From Squalus acanthias (taxonomy: Eukaryota), in the NCBI GenBank assembly GCA_030390025.1, contig CM059434.1, positions 127,286,001-127,350,000 of the forward strand: 64,000 nt of DNA, written 5' to 3'. Below the pieces are notes generated by a model, which ran no database searches, had not been told where the DNA came from, and saw nothing but the letters and a program-made list of their open reading frames with translations. Shown here piece by piece: positions 1,646-53,115 of this stretch. Made by a program: the position numbers and the translations under genes. Every line of letters begins with the position of its first letter. The first letter of the stretch is position 1.

Positions 1646-1802
1646 GTTCTTTACTTGTCACTTGGATCATGGCCATGCTACATTTGCCTCTGAAAATTAA
1701 CCTCAAGGCTCCAGAAGAGAGAAGGAAAGCAATCAGCAAATTTGTCTTTGCAATAGCTGCAAACAGATCTCATAATACCACAAGGTAGGGCATGTCTGCC
1801 AG

Positions 1803-4232
1803 ACATGGGGCCTGCAGCAGGTGGTGAGAGAACCAACACGAGGGGAAAAACCTACTTGACCTCCGTCCTCGCCAATCTAGCTGTCGCAGATGCATCTGTC
1901 CATGACAGTATTGGTAGGAGTGACCACCGCATAGTCCTTATGGAGACGAAGTCCCATCTTCACACTGAGGGCACTCTCTATCGTGTTGTGTCGCACTACC
2001 ACCATGCTAAATGGGATAGATTCAGAATAGATCTAATGGTGCAAAAATGGGTATCGATTAGGCGCTGCGGGCTATCATCAGCAGCAGAATTGTACACCAC
2101 CACAATCTGTAATCTCATGGCCTGGCATATCCCTCACTCTATCATTACCATCAAGCCAGGGGACTAACCCTGGTTCAATGAGGAGTGTAGAAGAATATGC
2201 CAGGAGCAGCACCAGGTGTACCTAAAAATGATGTGCCAACCTGGTGAAACTATAACACAGGACCAAATACATGCTAAACAGCGGAAGAGCTAAGTGATCC
2301 CACAACCAACGATTAGATCAAAGCTCTGCAGTCCTGCCGCATCCCGTTGTGAATGGTAGTGGACAATTAAACAACTCATGGGAGGAGGAGGCTCCATGAA
2401 CATCCCCATCCTGAATGATGACGGAGCCCAGCACATGAGTGCAAAAGACAAAACTGAACCATTCGCAACCATCTTCAGCCATAAGTGCCGAGTGGGTGAT
2501 TCATCTCGGCCTCCTCCTGAGGTCCCCACCATCACAGAAGCCAGTCTTCAGCCAGTTCGATTCACTCCACGTGATATCAGGAAACGGCTGAGTGCATGGG
2601 ATGCAGCCAAGGCTATGGGCCCCGACAACATCCTGGCTGTTGTGCTGAAGACTTGTGCTCCAGAACTAGCCGCACCTCTAGCCAAGCTGTTCCAGTACAG
2701 CTACAACACTGGCATCTACCCGACAATGTGGAAAATTGCCCTGGTATGTCCTGTCCACAAAAAGCAGGATAAGTCCAATTCGGCCAATTAGCGCCCCATC
2801 AGTCTACTCTCAATCATCAGCCAAGTGATAGAAGGTGTCGTCGACACGTGCTATCAAGCGGCACTTACGCACCAGTAACCTGCTCACCGATGTTCAGTTT
2901 GGGTTCCGCCAGGACCACTCGGCTCCAGGCCTCATTACAGCCTTGGTCTGAACATGGACAAAAGAGCTGAATTCCAGAGGTGAGGTGAGAGTGACTGCCC
3001 TTGACATCAAGGCAGCATTTGACTGTGTGCCATCAAGGAGCCCTAGTAAAATTGAAGCCAATAGGAATCTGGGAAAACTCTGCACTGACTGGAGTCATAC
3101 TGCGCATAAAGGAAGATGGTTGTGGATGTTGGATGCCAATCATTGCAGCCCACGGGCATCCTCAGGACAGTGTCCTAGGCCCCACCATCTTCAACTGCTT
3201 CATCAATGACCTTCCCTCCATCATCGGGATACTGAATTGGAGGATCAGCCATGATCTCATTAAATGGCGGAGCAGGCTCGAAGGGCCGGATGGCCTACTC
3301 CTGCTCCTATCTTCTATGTATCTATGTATCTATAAGGTCAGAAGTTGGGATGTTACCTGATGATTGCAGTGTTCAGTTGCATTCGCACCTCCTCGGATAA
3401 TGAAGCAGTCCGTGCCCACATACAGCAAGATCTGGACGACATTCAGGCTTGGGCTGATAAGTGGCGAGTAACATTCGTGCCACACAAGTGCCAGGCAATG
3501 ACTATCTCCAACAAGAGAGTCTAAGCACCGCCTCTTGACATTCAATGGCGTTACCATCGCTGATTCCCCCACCATCAACATCCTGGGGGGATTACCATTG
3601 ACCAGAAACTTAACTGGACCAGCCACATAAATACTGTGGCTACAAGAGCAGGTCAGAGGCTGGGTATTCGGCGAGTGTCTCACCTTCTGACTCCCCAAAG
3701 CCTTTTCACCATCTACAAGGCACAAGTAAGGAGTGTGATGGAATACTCTCCACTTGCCTGGATGAGTGTAGTTCCAACAACACTCAAGAAGCTCGACACC
3801 ATCCAGGACAAAGCAACCTGCTTGATTGGCACCCCATCTACCACCTTAAACATTCACTCCCTCCACCATGCGTACCATGGCTGCAGTGTGTACCATCTAC
3901 AAGATGCACTGCAGGAACTTGCCAAGGTATCTTCGACAGCACCTTCCAAACCTGAGAGCTTTACCATTTTAGAAGGACAAGGGCAGCAGGCGTATGGGAA
4001 CACGATCACTTCCAAGTTCCCCTACAAGTCACACATCATCCTGACTTGGAATTATAATGCCGTTCTTTTATCGTCGCTGAGTCAAAATCCTGGAACTCCC
4101 TCCCTAACAGCACTGCGGGAGTACCTTCATCACGCAGTTCAAAAGGGCGCCACCTTCTCCAGGGCAATTTGGGATGAGCAATAAATACTGGTCTTGCCAG
4201 TGACGCCCACGTCCCATGAACAAATTTAAAAT
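1803..4232 (+). mobile_element. 5'-truncated, decayed non-LTR retrotransposon (CR1/Jockey-group) ORF2 and 3' end
   Basis: SDH endonuclease end, AMGPDNI..VLKTCAPELAAPLAKLFQ, ALDIKAAFD, PQDSVLGP..F..FINDL, QVRSVMEYSPLAW; stops and frameshifts. Confidence 0.9.
3225..3333 (+). mobile_element. CR1/HER1-type 3' tail nested inside the LINE RT region
   Basis: gatcagccatgatctcattaaatggcggagcaggctcgaaggg...(ctatgtat)n interrupts NDLPSII|RSEVGM. Confidence 0.8.
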
Positions 4233-17433: not shown

Positions 17434-17782
17434 TGAATTCTACATCTGGCATTGTAACTTTGAGTTCATGGGCTAGCAATCCATAAACTGAGTCTAAGAA
17501 GCGAGACCTTTTAACCTATTTTAATTAGCCGTGTGCTGCGATGTCGTGTGATCCTGACAGTTGGTATATTGTGGAATCTGGTGGGTTCAGTGAAAGGCTT
17601 CTACTTCAATTTATTACAACTTTTATGCCAAACAAATAAGACAGGCACCATCATACAACATAGCTCTTAATTAGAATGATCTGATCATTTTTTTTAGCAC
17701 TAAATTGCCACTTTACTGTGTTGGTTTAAGAATTTAAGGCAGTGAAGTAGGCAGGTTGGTTGTTACAATGCTTTCATATTTG

Positions 17783-18990
17783 AGGACAAAGGTGAACCAG
17801 TGGATGTGGTGTATTTGGATTTCCAGAAGGCATTCGATAAGGTGCCACATAAAAGGTTACTGCTTAAGATAAGAGCTCACGGAATTGGGGGTAATATATT
17901 AGCATGGATAGAGAATTGGCTAACTAACAGAAAGCAGAGAGTCGGGATAAATGGGTCATTTTCTGGTTGTCAAACGGTAACTAGTGGGGTGCCACAGGGA
18001 TCGGTGCTGGGGCCTCAACTATTTACAATCTACATTAATGACTTGGATGAAGGGACCGAGTGTAATGTAGCCAAGTTTGCGGATGATACAAAGATGGGTG
18101 GGAAAGCAAGTTGTGCAGAGGACTCAAAGAATCTGCAAAGGATATAGACAGGCTAAGTGAATGGGCAAACATTTGGCAGTTGGAGTATAATGTGGGAAAG
18201 TGCGAGGTTATACACTTTGGCAGGAAAAATAAAAAAGCAAATTATTATTTAAATGGAGAGATTACAGAATGCTACAGTTCAGAGGGACCTGGGGGTCCTT
18301 GTGCATGAAACACAAAGTTAGCTTGCAGGTACAGCAAGTAATCAAAAAGGCAACTGGAATGTTGGCCTTTATTTCAAAGGGGTTGGAGTATAAAAGCAGG
18401 GAAGTTCTGCTACAACTGTACAGGGTATTGGTGAGACCACACATTGAGTACTGCATACAGTTTTGGTCTCATTTAAAGAAGGATATACTTGCATTGGAGG
18501 CAGTTCAGAGACGATTCACTAGGTTGATTCCTGAGTTGAGGGGGTTGACTTATGAAGAAAGGTTGAGCAGGTTGGGCCTATACTCATTGGAATTTAGAAG
18601 AATGAGAGGTGATCTTACTGAAACATATAAGATACTGAGGGGGCTCGACAAGGTAGATGCAGAGAGGATATTTCCCCTCGTGGGGAAATCTAGAACGCGG
18701 GGGCACAGTTTTAGAATAAAGGGTCGCCCTTTTAGAACTGAAATGAGGAGGAATTTCTTCTGAGGGTCGTAAATCTGTGCAATTCTCTGCCCCAGAGAGC
18801 TGTGGAGGCTGGGTCATTAAATACATTTAAGGTGGAGATAGACACATTATTGCAAGATAAGGGAGTGAAGGGTTATGGGGAGCAGGCAGGGAAGTGGCTT
18901 TGAGCCCAAGATCAGCCATGATATTGAATGGCGGATCAGGCTCGAGGGGCCAAGTGGCCTATTCCTGCTCCTATTTCTTATGTTCTTATT
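17783..18990 (+). mobile_element. 5'-truncated CR1 (HER1-like) LINE: RT domain and 3' tail
   Basis: [50 protein letters not shown]; frameshifts; ttatgttcttat tail. Confidence 0.93.
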
Positions 18991-31165: not shown

Positions 31166-31423
31166 GTTTCCTCTCCCCCGCTATTCCTCCTTCATATCAA
31201 ATCATCTCCAATTAGCATCGAGCCCTATCTACTCTTTTGGTGATTACTCCAGTTTACGTTCATTAACTTCCTTCAGAGCCCACTACCTTCATTCCCCTCA
31301 GTACAACGGTTGGAACGTGGTAACTTGCTCTCCACGTATTGATCAATGCTAAGCCAGTTACAGTATTCAAAAAAATGAGAAGTCGCACAACACCAGGTTA
31401 TAGTCCAACAGATTTATTTAAAA

Positions 31424-31461
31424 TTACAAGCTTTCGGAGCTGTCGCCCCTTCGTCAGGCAA
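31424..31461 (-). ncRNA. Minimal hammerhead ribozyme motif, left-arm copy
   Basis: Exact reverse complement of 33130-33167. Confidence 0.82.
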
Positions 31462-31699
31462 AGGTACAGTGAGTGAATCTACAACATTACACCGTATATA
31501 AACACAGACACTGCAGAGATACAATCTTTCAGGGAAGGTGTCCTTACATCAAAGACATACCAGAGCACAGCCAAGACAATGAGATGTGTCACAGGGGGTC
31601 CAACGTGTCAAATCCTGCTGTCTGCAGTTGTTTTTTTTGGGGGTTTGCTTTTTTTAAAGTTTTTTTTTAAAAACTGGAAAGACAGACAACGATGTCGAG

Positions 31700-32186
31700 T
31701 CACGTTCTGTAGCGTGACATGAACCCGATATCCCTATTGAAGCCATCCTCATGGGTGCGGAACTTGGCTATCAGTTTCTGCTCGATGATTTTGCGTTGTC
31801 GTGTGTCTCGAAGGCCGCCTTGGAGAACGCTAACCCGCAGATCCGAGGCTGAATGTCCTTGACTGCTGAAGTGTTCCCCGACTGGGAGGTAGCAATCCTG
31901 CCTGGCGATTGTTGCGCGGTGTCCGTTCATACGTTGTCTCAGTGTCTGCATGGTCTCGCCGATGTACCATGCTCTGGGGCATCCTTTCCTGCAACGTATC
32001 AGGTAGACAACGTTGGCCGAGTCACATGAGTATGTACCATGTACCTGGTGGGTAGTGTCCTCACGTGTGATGACGGTATCTGTGTTCATGATCTGGCATG
32101 TCTTGCAGAGGTTGCCGTGGCAGGGTTGTGTGGTGTCGTGGTCGCTGTTCTCCTGACAGCTGGGTAATTTGCTGCGAACGATGGTA
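31700..32186 (-). pseudogene. Penelope GIY-YIG endonuclease remnant (left arm)
   Basis: ORF 31700..32089 (-) nearly identical to the right-arm protein (QDCY/QYCC, V/A, F/L differences). Confidence 0.9.
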
Positions 32187-32399
32187 CTTTGAGGTTAGGC
32201 GGCTGCTTGAAGGCGAGTAGTGGAGGCGTGGGGATGGCCTTAGCGAGGTGTTCGTCGTCATCGATGACATGTTGAAGGCTGCGAAGAAAGGCGCCATGTT
32301 CTTCGCAGCCTTCAACATGTCATCGATGACGACGAACACCTTGCTAAGGCCATCCCCACGCCTCCACTACTCGCCTTCAAGCAGCCGCCTAACCTCAAG

Positions 32400-32886
32400 T
32401 ACCATCGTTCGCAGCAAATTACCCAGCTGTCAGGAGAACAGCGACCACGACACCACACAACCCTGCCACGGCAACCTCTGCAAGACATGCCAGATCATGA
32501 ACACAGATACCGTCATCACACGTGAGGACACTACCCACCAGGTACATGGTACATACTCATGTGACTCGGCCAACGTTGTCTACCTGATACGTTGCAGGAA
32601 AGGATGCCCCAGAGCATGGTACATCGGCGAGACCATGCAGACACTGAGACAACGTATGAACGGACACCGCGCAACAATCGCCAGGCAGTATTGTTGCCTC
32701 CCAGTCGGGGAACACTTCAGCAGTCAAGGACATTCAGCCTCGGATCTGCGGGTTAGCGCTCTCCAAGGCGGCCTTCGAGACACACGACAACGCAAAATCA
32801 TCGAACAGAAACTGATAGCCAAGTTCCGCACCCATGAGGATGGCCTCAATAGGGATATCGGGTTCATGTCACGCTACAGAACGTGA
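32400..32886 (+). pseudogene. Penelope Cys-rich linker plus GIY-YIG endonuclease remnant (right arm)
   Basis: PCHGNLCKTC...SC linker, NVVYLIRC...WYIGET...RQRMNGHR...EHF...E...GLN motifs; no RT domain; frameshifted relative to the upstream PPLLAFKQPPNLK frame. Confidence 0.9.
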
Positions 32887-33129
32887 CTCGACATCGTTGT
32901 CTGTCTTTCCAGTTTTTTTAAAAAAAACACTTAAAAAAAAAACAAACCCCAAAAAAAACACAACTGCAGACAGCAGGATTTGACACGTTGGACCCCCTGT
33001 GACACATCTCATTGTCTTGGCTGTGCTCTGGTATGTCTTTGATGTAAGGACACCTTCCCTGAAAGATTGTATCTCTGCAGTGTCTATGTTTATATACGGT
33101 GTAATGTTGTAGATTCACTCATTGTACCT

Positions 33130-33167
33130 TTGCCTGACGAAGGGGCGACAGCTCCGAAAGCTTGTAA
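33130..33167 (+). ncRNA. Minimal type I hammerhead ribozyme motif in the Penelope terminal repeat
   Basis: UUGC-CUGACGA-A-GGGGC gaca GCUCC-GAA-AGCU-U-GUAA: stem I, core, stem II and palindromic AGCU in place of helix III. Confidence 0.82.
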
Positions 33168-33884
33168 TTTTAAATAAATCTGTTGGACTATAACCTGGTG
33201 TTGTGCGACTTCTCATTTTTGTCCACCCCAGTCCAACACCGGCATCTCCGCATCATGACCAGTATTCAAAAAGGTAGTGGATAATTACAAATACAAAAGG
33301 ATATGGGGAGACAGCGGAAATAGAAGAGAGGTCAAGAAAGATGAGGAGAGATAATGCACGGTGGTCGCAGTGTGTGGTGTCCGTGACTTTGTTTCGGGCT
33401 CTTTTGGTGCTGTGGGAGGAGTGGAAACCTGATTGGAAGGATTCAAATGGCGTTGTGGGAGGGATGGGCATGGATCCAGGAAGCGGGAACATTTTCAAGG
33501 ACATTGAAGAGGAAAAGGAGGTTTGAGATGGGGTTGAGGGTGGGTTTATTGAGGGAGTGGTGATGTATTGTTAATAGGCTTAGTGGCAATTCTTTATGGC
33601 ATAAACTGATCACTATTTGTATTGATCAGTCACTTATAACAATCAAAATCTGCTGTGCAGAGGTCTTTCGATGGGTAGTTTTATTTTCCGCCGGTGCTCA
33701 CGGGTTTCCCCAAACACTGGCCTTGCAGCGGGCAACAAACCAAATGTAAAGTTGCCAGGACTTTATAAAATCAGTGACTTGGAAAACATAAACATAGAAC
33801 TTATTAGCCATGAGAAGGCCATTGGACCCTCCTTATCTGCACTGAATGAGCAGTGCTCTCTGGAGGCAATTTTACAGTCCCATT

Positions 33885-34143
33885 TTTCCACTGTCTCCCC
33901 ATATCCTTTTGTATTTATAATTATCCACTACCTTTTTGAATACTGTAACTGGCTTAGCATTGATCAATACGTGGAGATCAAGTTACCACGTTCCAACTGT
34001 TGTACTGAGGGGAATTAAGGTAGTGGGCACTGAAGGAAGTTAATGAACGTAAACTGGAGTAATCGCCAAAAGAGTAGATAGGGCTCGATGCTAATTGGAG
34101 GAGATAATTTGATATTAAGGAGGAATAGCGGGGGAGAGGAAAC
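33885..34143. repeat. Uninterrupted donor copy of the inverted duplication; contains the empty Penelope target site
   Basis: ccactacctttttgaatactgtaactgg is the reverse complement of ccagttacagtattcaaaaaggtagtgg, with a single TSD copy. Confidence 0.9.
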
Positions 34144-45882: not shown

Positions 45883-46051
45883 GTGTCCAGTGATAGCAGA
45901 TGGTACAAGACCACCTGTTATTCCTGGACTCTGTATGGTGCCCAGTGATGATAGCAGATGGTACAGGACCACCTGTTATTCCTGGACTCTGTATGGTGCC
46001 CAGTGATGATAGCAGATGGTACAGGACCACCTGTCATTCCCGGACTCTGTA
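45883..46051 (+). repeat. 58-bp minisatellite, ~2.9 copies
   Basis: atggtac recurs at 45900, 45958 and 46016. Confidence 0.93.
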
Positions 46052-48387
46052 CAGTTCAGATCTATGCAGACCACTAGACACGGTGGCCTACTCCGTGACG
46101 ATGTCCATACTTCACCGGAGAGATGTGGCTCTGCTGTTAGATGTCTACAAATCTAACCACAACAACACCACACAAGTTAGACCACAGCCTCGTGTGAATC
46201 CGGAAACGAGAGATGCTGCACCTCAACATTTTCAGTCAACTTAAGTTTGTGCAAAATACCAACGTCTCACACGCCTCTTCTCCTGCCTATGGAGCTATCA
46301 TCCAGACAGTGCCTCTGACCTTCTGCAAATAAGGAACACAGTTCCAGATAATGACAAAGTTAACTATTTCTTGCTGAGCGAGGGTTGCTGCAATGTATAT
46401 GGGATTTCTGACCTGCCCTAGCACTGTTTCTCCAAGTATTTTTATGCTTCCATTAGCCAGCAGGGTCCACATTGTGAGAACCTGTTCTTGGTTACATCTG
46501 TTTTCAAATGCACCCTTTTATGACACTTTTTTGCATATCCCCTTCCAAAGAAAATGCTTTCATATTTTTTATTACTGGCGTGTAACTCTGGAAATATCCT
46601 GAGTTTCTTCTAGTGCCAGAAGTGGAGTACTGCAGCAACAGTTTCCTTATTTTCCATTAATCTATTCTACAGCCTTTGGTTCCATCCTAGGTCCAATCAT
46701 TAAAAAAGGTGATAGAACAATGCAGCATATTGGAAGTTCCTTTACCCTGCTCTTGCCTGCTGTTAGATGCTGTATGTGACAGACATGGGTTTCATTATAT
46801 ACTGTGTTGTAAAAATATTCCTGTATCATACCTTTTCATATGAATATTTAGTGGATCTAGAATGGACTGTAGCCAGTGGTTCTGTAGGGGAAGCTTATTG
46901 TTCCTAGAGCTTGGCATGTGCAGTGTAGTTGTCTGATTTGTAGCTCCAGTAACCTTTGAACTTGAACCAAATTATGGCTCTTTGGAAGGACAATGGGTAA
47001 TTTATTTGTAGATTCCAGTCCGGTGGCCAAGAATGCAAGCTTGTTGTTAACTCTGACTGAACCATCAGAAAATGAGTTGTTGTTCTTCAGAGCGCAGGTC
47101 AGGTGTTTTGATTTGAAAATCAGTCAGGTTCTGGATAGCTCTTGCCAGGACCAGTCTGATTATGCCTCATCAGGGCATTAATTGAGGTGAGCTGTTCAAA
47201 TAGTCCTATGTTCAAAATGTATTTGGTCTGGCTTGATTTGCAAATTTATGTTCCGATGCGCCTCTGTCCGGGATAACTTTAACAAGGTGTTGACCATCTC
47301 CTTATTTTATTCAGCCCAACTTTATTTCTATGTTATGGTGATGAGGTGTAACTCAGTGGAACTAAAGCATCCCATGTTACATTCATCTAAGATTTAGTTA
47401 AAGGAATCTGAAAGAGAATTCTGAATCTTGAAATGCTTTATTATTTTGATTTCATAAACTTTGAAATATCATGATCCAAATTAGGCGCTGAGACATTCAT
47501 CTACTGATTTATCTTGCGTCTGTATAAGTTTACATATTGTAATAAATTAAATTTGTAGCATTAACCTGAAGAATATCTTTATCAGCATAGTGGTTTTTCT
47601 ACCTTGAAGCAATCGGGAAGCTAAAGTGCGGATCCTCCATGTCTTTCAGTACAAAATAACTGAGTAATTGTAATCCTGCGACATGCTAATACATTCATTC
47701 CATACGTGAGTTTTATAATTTTCTCATCATTGAGGTATAAGCCTGCCTCTGGAAACTGCCTTTTCACTTTCAGCGCGTATAAAGTGCTTTGGGGAGAAAG
47801 TGAGAATTGGAATCCTGCATATAGAACAGTTATTTTCCCTTGGGATGGAAAATCCGAGGATTAGAGGCTAGTTGCGAAGTAACCGCAATAAAGGCCTAGG
47901 AGCCAGTCTCCAGGAATATCTTTGTAATTGGTGCGTGACTTTGGGAAGGAATAACTGATGAAAAAAGAACACTTTCAAAAATCTATTTAAATGTGCCGCC
48001 TTCTACTCTTTTGCCCCTTCACCCTTTCTCAACTTTGATTCCGCAGTGTTAGATGGCAGTACATTTGTGAGAATTAATACTAGCTCAGATGCCAGTTCAC
48101 TGTATCAAATAATTGTCCTGCTTCTTTAATGATTGCCCTGCACATTTGGTAGAATGGGAAAATCTGGAATACAACTGGGTATTTCAAGAATAAGCATCAT
48201 CTGGTTTATGTGATCCCCCCCCCCCCCAACATGACCTACATGTTCTGAAGCTAAATCAAAAGGTAGGATACAAACCTATCTGGTGCAAACTTTTGAGCAA
48301 GAGGTTCAGGCTCTTTTGCAGATAATGTATGTTGCTTTTTAGAACGTTGACCCGGTGTTTTGCATTTTTACTGTGTGCATCAAATGA

Positions 48388-51469: not shown

Positions 51470-52676
51470 GTTGTAACCTGAGCAGATATAACTGGGCTTG
51501 TTGCTGCAGTTCTTCAGTTTAGTGCTGGAGAAGTTTTACAAAATGAATGTGTGGCAAGGTTATCTGTTATATTTTGATGGTGTACTCTTGCTGTTTGGCT
51601 TGTGGCATGTATCTTTTGTTTCTGTTTTACTTTTTCTCCTGGATTTGTTTGCCTTATCCAATGCTCTTATACTGCTGCTGTTAGTTTAGGGTCTGTCATT
51701 TTCGTATTAATAGGCATGGCGTTTAGCCATCCCACTCTCTGCAGCCACTCGCTAATCTATGGTGGTTATAGAGTAGCTTCACTCTCTTGCTGAAGACTTG
51801 GGGTATGCTCTGCCTCAGCTGGGTGTGTGCCGCTCCCCTCCTCTCAACCTTCCGTTCAGTAGTGGGAACCAGACAGTGGCTTACCGCTGCACTATTTAGA
51901 GTGTATTAGACCAGTGTGTGGGGTCCAGCATGGTTGTAGAGTGTGACTGGTTTGTGCAGAGATGGTGCTTTCTGTGCAAGACTGGTTTCTGTGTATTTGG
52001 AAGTAGTTATTAACGTGTCTGTCCATTTTCCCCATTTATCAACCCAGTGGTCTTTCAGCTGAGGTAGCACATTAAGACGTCATTTGCTATTTATGGTCCT
52101 TTTTGACTAATGGCAGAATTAATAGCTGTTTGAAAGGCTGCATTTACAGTAGGGAAATAGAACACATTTGAAGTTGCGTCTCAGTTAAATGACTGATGTA
52201 CTGGGAGATATTAGCTCTGGAATTCACAATGTGTCTTTAGACTAGGTTCAGATTGTTAGAGTAATTTTGGAGTGAATTAACTACCACTATGCTGCATTTC
52301 TGTGTGAGGTTTTGCTTTCTGATTGACCCCTCTGCTACCCCATGCACCATTTTCTTGGGGCAGGGCGGATGACTGAACAGCTTGCATTCAAAATTCTGTC
52401 AGTGCCACTCTATAATCAACCGTCAGGAGATGCGCAGTGGTGATCTGGGATGACTCGTCCACAGATTTCCTTTCTTCCATCCCACTCCCTTGAAGCAGCC
52501 AGCCATCGCTTGGTGCCTCCTTTCCCTGACTACCTCCTACAGATTGGGAACTTGCCACATGTGTGCCGGCACTCGGGGCTGCTGCTGGGATTTTGTGTTG
52601 ATGTCCATTCCTTGAATCAGCCCTCCATCCCTCCATTTACTGTGACCTACTAATGTCTGTGCTTTCTTTTTTGTTG

Positions 52677-52873
52677 AGTCGCACAACACCAGGTTATAGT
52701 CCAACAGCTTTATTTGAAATCACAAGCTTTCGGAGCGGCTGCTCCTTCGTCAGGTGAATGAGCAGCAGCTCTGAAAGCTTGTGATTTCAAATAAAGCTGT
52801 TGGACTATAACCTGGTGTTGTGCGACTTCTCACTTTTGTCCACCCCAGTCCAACACCGGCATCTCCGCATCAT
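52677..52873. mobile_element. Miniature inverted Penelope terminal-repeat insertion with TSD
   Basis: Left arm from 52677 pairs with 52760-52827; same tail (gtccaccccagtccaacaccggcatctccgcatcat) as 33221-33256; tcttttttgttg at 52665-52676 and 52874-52885. Confidence 0.9.
52720..52757 (-). ncRNA. Minimal hammerhead ribozyme motif in the mini-Penelope
   Basis: Minus strand reads UCAC-CUGACGA-A-GGAGC agcc GCUCC-GAA-AGCU-U-GUGA. Confidence 0.82.
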
Positions 52874-53115
52874 TCTTTTTTGTTGCATTTGTACTGCCTT
52901 TAAAAGGATTTCTTGTTCCCCCCCCCCCCCCCTCCTTTTTAAGAAGCAGGGTATGGAGCTGTGGTTGAGCATTGTTACAGAATGGAATTAAGGCTAGTTA
53001 GCCTAATAGGATTCCATTTATTATGAGCTTGATATTATACATTTTTACTACTGTCATTTATTCCAGTTGCTTGACTTTATGCATTTGTAACTAATTTGTT
53101 ACTTTTATTCTTAAG

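Follow-up and report, generated by a model that had tools for sequence, protein, structure and literature searches.

Layout of the insertion and its larger relative

The locus is a short fold-back insertion at positions 52677–52872 of the window, which is the whole 64-kb stretch of DNA analysed and contains no long host coding frame at a cut-off of 130 amino acids. Within a 13-bp target-site duplication (TSD), its 196 bp are made up of two arms, one inverted and one direct, and a tail of 45 bp; the order on the + strand is duplication, antisense copy, sense copy, tail, duplication. BLAST with this small element matched only itself and one larger element, and no third copy is present in the 64 kb. 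Public contigs were placed on positions 52540–52990 at 85% likeness, using four of 24 runs; X6–X21, with small shares, were left out. X1 and X5 are two samples of organism A (97% and 55% read, with 15,285 and 11,150 contigs placed), and X22 and X24 are organisms L and M from one study (2,840 and 3,038 contigs). X1 is possibly the source sample of the window itself and is not independent of it. The features discussed below are as follows.

31374–33259: comparison copy from a sister subfamily, a head-to-head insertion of a Penelope-like element (PLE), 1.9 kb in length, with a Zn-finger linker, a GIY-YIG ORF end and a pseudo-LTR in each arm
52664–52676, + strand: left TSD, 13 bp, with T at 10 of 13 bases; the longest exact repeat flanking the unit, present as a single copy in the empty site of X22 and X24
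52677–52758, − strand: inverted arm, a PLE pseudo-LTR end without the tail, stopping at the outer edge of hammerhead helix I; the family sequence runs on past 52758
52720–52757, − strand: complete minimal type I hammerhead motif in the inverted arm, from a descriptor scan
52756–52759: fold-back junction, a probable 4-nt microhomology common to both arms with one substituted base at 52759
52756–52827, + strand: direct arm, a pseudo-LTR end 5′ truncated within the hammerhead core, with a C-to-T change in helix II at 52772 (arm comparison and contigs)
52828–52872, + strand: unpaired tail, the PLE 3′ extension, with one difference from the tail of the large copy; family 3′ ends cluster just behind 52873
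52873–52885, + strand: right TSD, 13 bp, an exact match to 52664–52676, supported by the empty-site contigs

The exact 13-bp repeat, for which we roughly estimate a chance occurrence of 2e-5, sets the limits of the element at 52677 and 52872. The palindrome-plus-tail architecture of ~200 bp in the original prediction is confirmed, and the TSD is real, with both duplications exactly 13 bp instead of the 12–13 bp proposed. Position 52885, which had been given as the end of the unit, is the end of the right duplication; the element itself ends at 52872. The empty site was recovered in one 524-nt contig each from X22 and X24, which are two of the four runs compared and belong to one study. In both contigs, 52560–52663 is joined without a gap to 52873–52990, and exactly the element plus one duplication is missing. 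The contigs listed for organism A end at 52660 or share only 23 letters with the element. Organism A can be told from organisms L and M by this site, which serves as a clean presence/absence marker.

The paired portions of the arms (52677–52748 and 52756–52827) are 72 nt long and 96% complementary, and the + strand of the small element folds at −128.8 kcal/mol (z −18), a value reached by none of 200 shuffles. Rfam gave no match at the gathering threshold across the 64 kb. At E values up to 10, the 12 matches within 52600–52950 are all to microRNA precursor models, below their cut-offs and attributable to the hairpin, with no hammerhead model among them. PLE stubs resemble MITEs or microRNA hairpins and are open to misannotation.

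Elsewhere in the window, three head-to-tail copies of a 58-bp unit occupy 45891–46064, with 98% and 81% identity of the second and third copies to the first. Fragments of decayed LINE-type reverse transcriptases, presumably CR1-like, are recognizable by eye at 1757–4184 and 17746–18763.

The large copy has the same layout as the small element, which, as originally proposed, is a non-coding version of it without any ORF. The large copy is flanked by a 13-bp duplication (31361–31373 and 33260–33272), its arms differ at 12 of 917 aligned bases, and its ends are 91–95% identical to the small element. The tails, described as identical in the original prediction, have one difference, at 52833, and the tail of the large copy extends 4 nt more, to ...CATCATGAC, which is the usual family end. 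The outer ends of the inverted arms in the window lie at positions equal to 52827 and ~52837.

The large PLE is located within one arm of a ~270-bp host inverted duplication (31166–31373 plus 33260–33320, and 33885–34143), whose arms are 96% complementary and 564 bp apart; its empty site can still be read in the second, inverted host copy. The spacer between these host arms translates on the minus strand like a decayed reverse transcriptase, which we take to be of the LINE type. At the left end of the large copy (31369–31376), the final A run of the target matches the inner end of the element over 5–6 nt, with two extra A; no such match is seen at the left end of the small copy and only 1 nt at its right end. 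A short self-complementary hexamer is found at the center of the large palindrome (32289–32298), where the arms join.

The ORF end in both arms of the large copy contains a CX4CX2C linker and a GIY-YIG-type domain, with a weak Pfam GIY-YIG match (E 4.5e-4) that is under the curated cut-off. This ORF end matches 31 longer proteins among 315 candidates, several of them with an RVT_1 domain, which is present in all three relatives scanned. The top three relatives are from sharks, with 75–82% identity, and on this basis alone a shark is the probable host. A CX2-5CxxC Zn-finger linker is found in both large-copy arms and in three of the proteins (P0001, P0006 and P0017), and such a linker between RT and EN is given for Neptune and Nematis (PMC8557442). 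Judged from sequence, with the ORF evidence coming from the large copy of the sister subfamily, the small element is the 3′ end of an endonuclease-bearing PLE. Its linker would make this PLE Neptune-type, although the feature is shared with Nematis and the window is without an RT domain.

PLE endonuclease pieces also occur, with 70–88% identity, in shark gene models for cytochrome P450, septin 5a, XRCC5, PPP1R12A and follistatin-related 5 (the proteins with such pieces are P0004, P0007, P0009, P0013, P0019, P0022–P0026, P0028 and P0031). They are probably intronic copies in predicted isoforms, and possibly cases of real exonisation.

The ~200-bp size, the long inverted repeat and the target duplication could also suggest a cut-and-paste DNA transposon, i.e. 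a true MITE. However, the right-hand arm does not abut the duplication, as the 45-bp tail lies between them, and the sequence derives from the 3′ end of an RT/GIY-YIG element. Other copies, as judged from the best 15 of 107 joints described below, show a continuum of arm lengths. The true MITE reading is, therefore, largely refuted. A deletion remnant of a longer copy could be envisaged for a single copy, by later central deletion of a longer palindrome; we regard either origin as very improbable.

The hammerhead motif

The complete motif in the inverted arm consists of a 4-bp helix I, the core, an extra A, a 5-bp helix II and a helix III formed by the palindrome AGCU. The predicted cut is after U17 at 52724, and the equivalent of U17 in the direct arm is 52780. 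The hammerhead descriptor gave three matches on both strands of the window, in the two arms of the large copy and in the inverted arm of the small copy. The features of the minimal hammerhead (min-HHR), namely a CUGANGA and GAAA core, helices I and II, a base after A9, a palindromic helix III and H17 not G, are all found in the inverted arm only. The direct arm is without CUGAC, in agreement with the original prediction, and has T at 52772, a base read as C in 39 contigs of X1, 30 of X5, 6 of X22 and 9 of X24 (a small share in the last two). The start of this arm had been placed in stem II; it is probably at 52756, inside the catalytic core, with a substitution at 52759.

Stem I is UCAC/GUGA in the small copy versus UUGC/GUAA in the large copy, and stem II is GGAGC/GCUCC versus GGGGC/GCUCC, both as originally described. 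The different loop mentioned there corresponds to three changes in loop II. Between the two hammerhead versions, 7 of 38 positions are changed (four of them in the stems, three in loop II and none of the 16 core positions), and the four stem changes consist of one double change and two one-sided G-U/A-U changes. Outside the hammerhead, the copies are near-identical, with two changes in 52677–52719 and one in the tail (3 of ~88 positions). Divergence between the subfamilies is greatest in the hammerhead (33127–33173 versus 52714–52760), echoing the variability noted in PMC4209133.

These differences had been put forward as covariation support for a conserved fold. The double change is indeed present, but it is not significant alone, since 147 of 500 shuffles equal the observed covariation in an alignment whose four rows are really two subfamily sequences. 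With four random stem changes, all nine pairs survive in 4–19% of trials, and seven changes that spare the core and keep the pairs are obtained in 0.02–0.2%, for a structure drawn from the same sequences. Among the contigs, position 17 carries C in place of U in 10% (X1) and 22% (X5) of the depth and not in X22 or X24, and a one-base loss in loop II is found in 51, 38, 41 and 49 contigs (X1, X5, X22 and X24, respectively). Both C at position 17 and the loop II base loss are tolerated under established hammerhead rules. We consider the hammerhead fold of the family credible. The conserved fold belongs to the parent PLE subfamilies and reflects selection on these parents; the small element would have inherited it with the pseudo-LTR of a parent, the motif being maintained by selection on active parents.

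In folding calculations, the pair probabilities of the hammerhead helices are 0.0 within the whole element, compared to 0.87–1.0 for the isolated motif, and on the minus strand the complementary arm is transcribed before the complete motif. The ribozyme of the small copy is thus predicted to be locked within the 72-bp hairpin and to be unable to cleave. When two copies of either motif were co-folded, the dimeric hammerhead was not the lowest-energy structure, a modeling result that neither supports nor excludes activity as a dimer.

Fold-back junctions in public contigs

The 3′ end of the family is sharp, with 156, 132, 37 and 51 contigs (X1, X5, X22 and X24) loose behind 52873. Past this position, the contigs start with GAC and then disagree (agreement 0.37–0.41), as expected for unrelated flanks. 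The usual end is, therefore, that of the large copy, and the small copy is 4 nt short of it. Further family ends among those listed are at 52837 and 52842 (X5), 52830 (X22) and 52866 (X24). In the other direction, family sequence runs on past 52758 in 56, 56, 18 and 13 contigs of the four runs, and 17 X1 contigs run on from 52755 as in the large copy. The two continuations indicate two subfamilies, both longer than the small element.

The left-arm mirror and the family continuation both predict G at 52759, where the window has T, and the three bases preceding it are compatible with both arms. The simplest reading of these letters would be an overlap of 4 nt at 52756–52759 followed by one later substitution; alternatively, the base at 52759 could be non-templated. 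The arms mismatch at three positions, all in the inner 17 bp (52756–52772), and the outer 55 bp are perfectly complementary. The inner mismatches could have come from the use of two templates, from errors made close to the junction or from repair of one arm by the other.

A total of 107 joints of the fold-back type were found in the contigs. The best 15 of them represent 15 different position pairs, connecting 52703–52758 to 52772–52838 with implied direct arms of 35–101 nt, and each occurs in 1–3 contigs per run. The evidence consists of short contigs with 20–38 letters on the shorter side of the joint, and no copy is seen end to end. The two organism A samples have seven of these 15 joints in common, and organisms L and M share one; such sharing is an argument for the joints being genomic. 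None of the 15 is common to organism A and L or M. The original prediction had proposed junction variability as a test between a propagating family and independent truncations. Run here on contigs, with the best 15 of 107 joints all different, this test favors independent truncation. The varying junctions and the longer parents that continue upstream also support the proposal that the element is an extremely 5′-truncated retroelement.

The summed depth at the junction of the small copy is 33,456 in X1 (at 52759), 7,207 in X5 (at 52761), 183 in X22 and 583 in X24, compared to 4.3, 1.4, 1.0 and 1.3 million, respectively, in the tail bin 52844–52859. The junction, thus, accounts for at most 0.8%, 0.5%, 0.02% and 0.04% of the tail depth, and these are upper bounds because contigs that merely end at the junction are also counted. 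Summed depth is not equivalent to copy number, and exact matches to the junction of the small copy would be absent from the difference tables. Deletions of 1–6 nt at 52759–52762 were found in 17 contigs of X1, 9 of X5, 2 of X22 and 9 of X24, and may represent near-identical junctions. Some fold-back junctions probably recur in several copies.

Such recurrence raises the second proposal of the original prediction, a non-autonomous, MITE-looking family, in which one fold-back copy is transcribed and re-copied in trans by a PLE protein that needs only the pseudo-LTR end, so that many copies inherit its junction or junctions. The top joints among the 15 are at ~4–28 times the flank depth (summed depths of 32–420 versus 8–17 in the flanks), the small deletions gather at 52759–52762, and seven of the 15 recur in both organism A samples, although fixed insertions should be found in any two samples of the same organism. 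Sequence unrelated to PLEs can be mobilised in trans by PLE ends (PMC3846280), and non-autonomous Chlamys PLEs have been reported (PMC8557442). However, no junction dominates, that of the small copy reaching less than 1% of the tail depth, and the absence of joints common to organism A and L or M, among the 15, is unfavorable. Where a family is very abundant, hot spots of microhomology would presumably yield recurrence without re-copying. The 72-bp hairpin is predicted to be a poor template and to inactivate the ribozyme, and the longer parents run on upstream of the small element. A family with a shared junction is thus not supported, and we consider it distinctly unlikely as an explanation of this copy. 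It is a similarly slim prospect that some shark fold-back stubs were re-copied in trans, with a hammerhead-favored junction giving rise to small MITE-looking retro-families whose ribozyme is locked by the antisense arm. Under that reading, structure would stall the RT, and the hammerhead core would offer microhomology with helix I; if it is true, two-primer PLE insertion would also have left an in vivo record in the thousands of stubs.

Origin of the insertion and comparison with known systems

We conclude, with a probability of about 0.8, that the small element is a single dead-on-arrival insertion of an endonuclease-bearing PLE with a Neptune-type linker, with both arms cut short. Two copies of the element's 3′ end lie head to head with starts 45 nt apart. 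Both arms include the predicted ribozyme cut site (U17 at 52780 and 52724) and sequence beyond it, indicating that the template RNA was uncleaved. This geometry, the ends and the junction are directly observed. We infer the priming, the source of the protein and the joining of the cDNAs. The RT/GIY-YIG protein of a full-length relative would nick both strands, 13 nt apart, and each free 3′ end would prime reverse transcription on uncleaved element RNA. On the bottom strand, synthesis would start at the tail end, and on the top strand at a second, inner start site 45 nt further in. The two cDNAs would halt at lengths of about 80 and 117 nt, on reaching the hammerhead or within it, and would then be joined via the 4-nt microhomology. 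A halt of the cDNAs at the ribozyme cut itself was considered and rejected, as only ~2–3 of 30 ends (from the best 15 of 107 joints) are within one base of it, which is near chance, and both arms pass it.

This scheme is consistent with the behavior of a purified Poseidon PLE protein, which nicks and extends both strands, prefers AT-rich DNA and inserts uncleaved RNA (PMC11167929). The same protein, a predicted dimer, starts at two adjacent internal sites whose spacing equals the tail (PMC11167929). This in vitro support comes from a Poseidon element, not Neptune, and the joining of two cDNAs is not demonstrated in the accessible part of that source. Inverted 5′-truncated copies with tails are typical of PLEs (PMC8557442; PMC3846280; PMC8969392).

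The palindrome of a single truncated PLE insertion could also arise without a second primer, by self-priming or fold-back of one cDNA or antisense template. Self-priming has been proposed for rotifer PLEs from palindromes at inverted junctions (PMC3846280), and the perfect complementarity of the outer 55 bp is what copying of one arm from the other would give. In the small element, however, the direct arm stops ~10 nt short of the 5′ reach of the inverted arm, and three inner positions differ between the arms; the inverted arm, therefore, cannot have been made simply by copying the direct arm. At the junction there is an overlap in place of a self-complementary palindrome, and extension of both strands has been observed in vitro (PMC11167929). 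Self-priming fits less well than two primers, given the longer reach of the inverted arm, and we consider it unlikely.

The small element alone matters little, being one of very many truncated copies. The stub population could be used to test how PLEs make inverted ends, since the outer ends and junctions record the start sites and the joining. In the literature covered, mostly without subscription papers or supplements, we found no paper devoted to the shark family or to fold-back stubs below 200 bp; the family may already be catalogued in Repbase or Dfam. A link to Eulor/UCON hairpin repeats was considered and dropped; the accessible part of PMC5753468 lists UCON13 as Penelope and is silent on its structure. 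Matches to a 17-nt pattern in metagenome contigs (17) and in viral contigs (one) extend by at most a few matching bases and are attributed to chance, and a protein-led scan of viral contigs gave 22 pattern matches, none of them confirmed.

Metazoan non-LTR retrozymes (PMC7229834; bioRxiv 10.64898/2026.07.22.740005) are likewise small, non-coding and PLE-related, with a type I hammerhead. In contrast to these head-to-tail tandems with a complete ribozyme per unit, the small element is a single head-to-head unit with one buried, complete motif and one broken motif, and it is not a non-LTR retrozyme.

The motif in the small element resembles the min-HHR of metazoan PLE pseudo-LTRs (PMC4209133) in its type I layout, with a helix I of 4 bp, one additional base between positions 9 and 10.1, the pair G10.1-C11.1, a palindromic 15.2–16.2 and helices that vary between subfamilies. 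In that source, min-HHR pairs are described that lie on opposite strands at distances of 100–700 bp, and most motifs are attributed to truncated PLEs. Helix II has 5 bp here, compared to 7–8 bp in the Schistosoma examples, the small element has the full core in one arm only, and shark families are not named in the accessible part of PMC4209133.

PAc (Poseidon from Anolis carolinensis; PMC11167929) shares with the small element two adjacent start sites that define the tail, an AT-rich target and cDNA that passes through an uncleaved hammerhead. It belongs to the Poseidon clade, in contrast to the shark relatives, which have the CX4CX2C linker of Neptune and Nematis.

A close parallel in layout is found in the complex insertions of EN+ PLEs (PMC3846280; PMC8557442), which have a head-to-head inverted copy, a tail at one end, a target duplication, strong 5′ truncation and an inverted arm shorter than the direct arm at the 3′ end. 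The small element, at 196 bp and without an ORF, is far shorter than these insertions. The tails of EN+ PLEs are quoted as 30–40 bp, compared to 45 bp here, and the rotifer duplications are 8–10 bp, compared to 13 bp. The small element is an ordinary example of a pattern already described for PLEs and does not represent a new kind of element.
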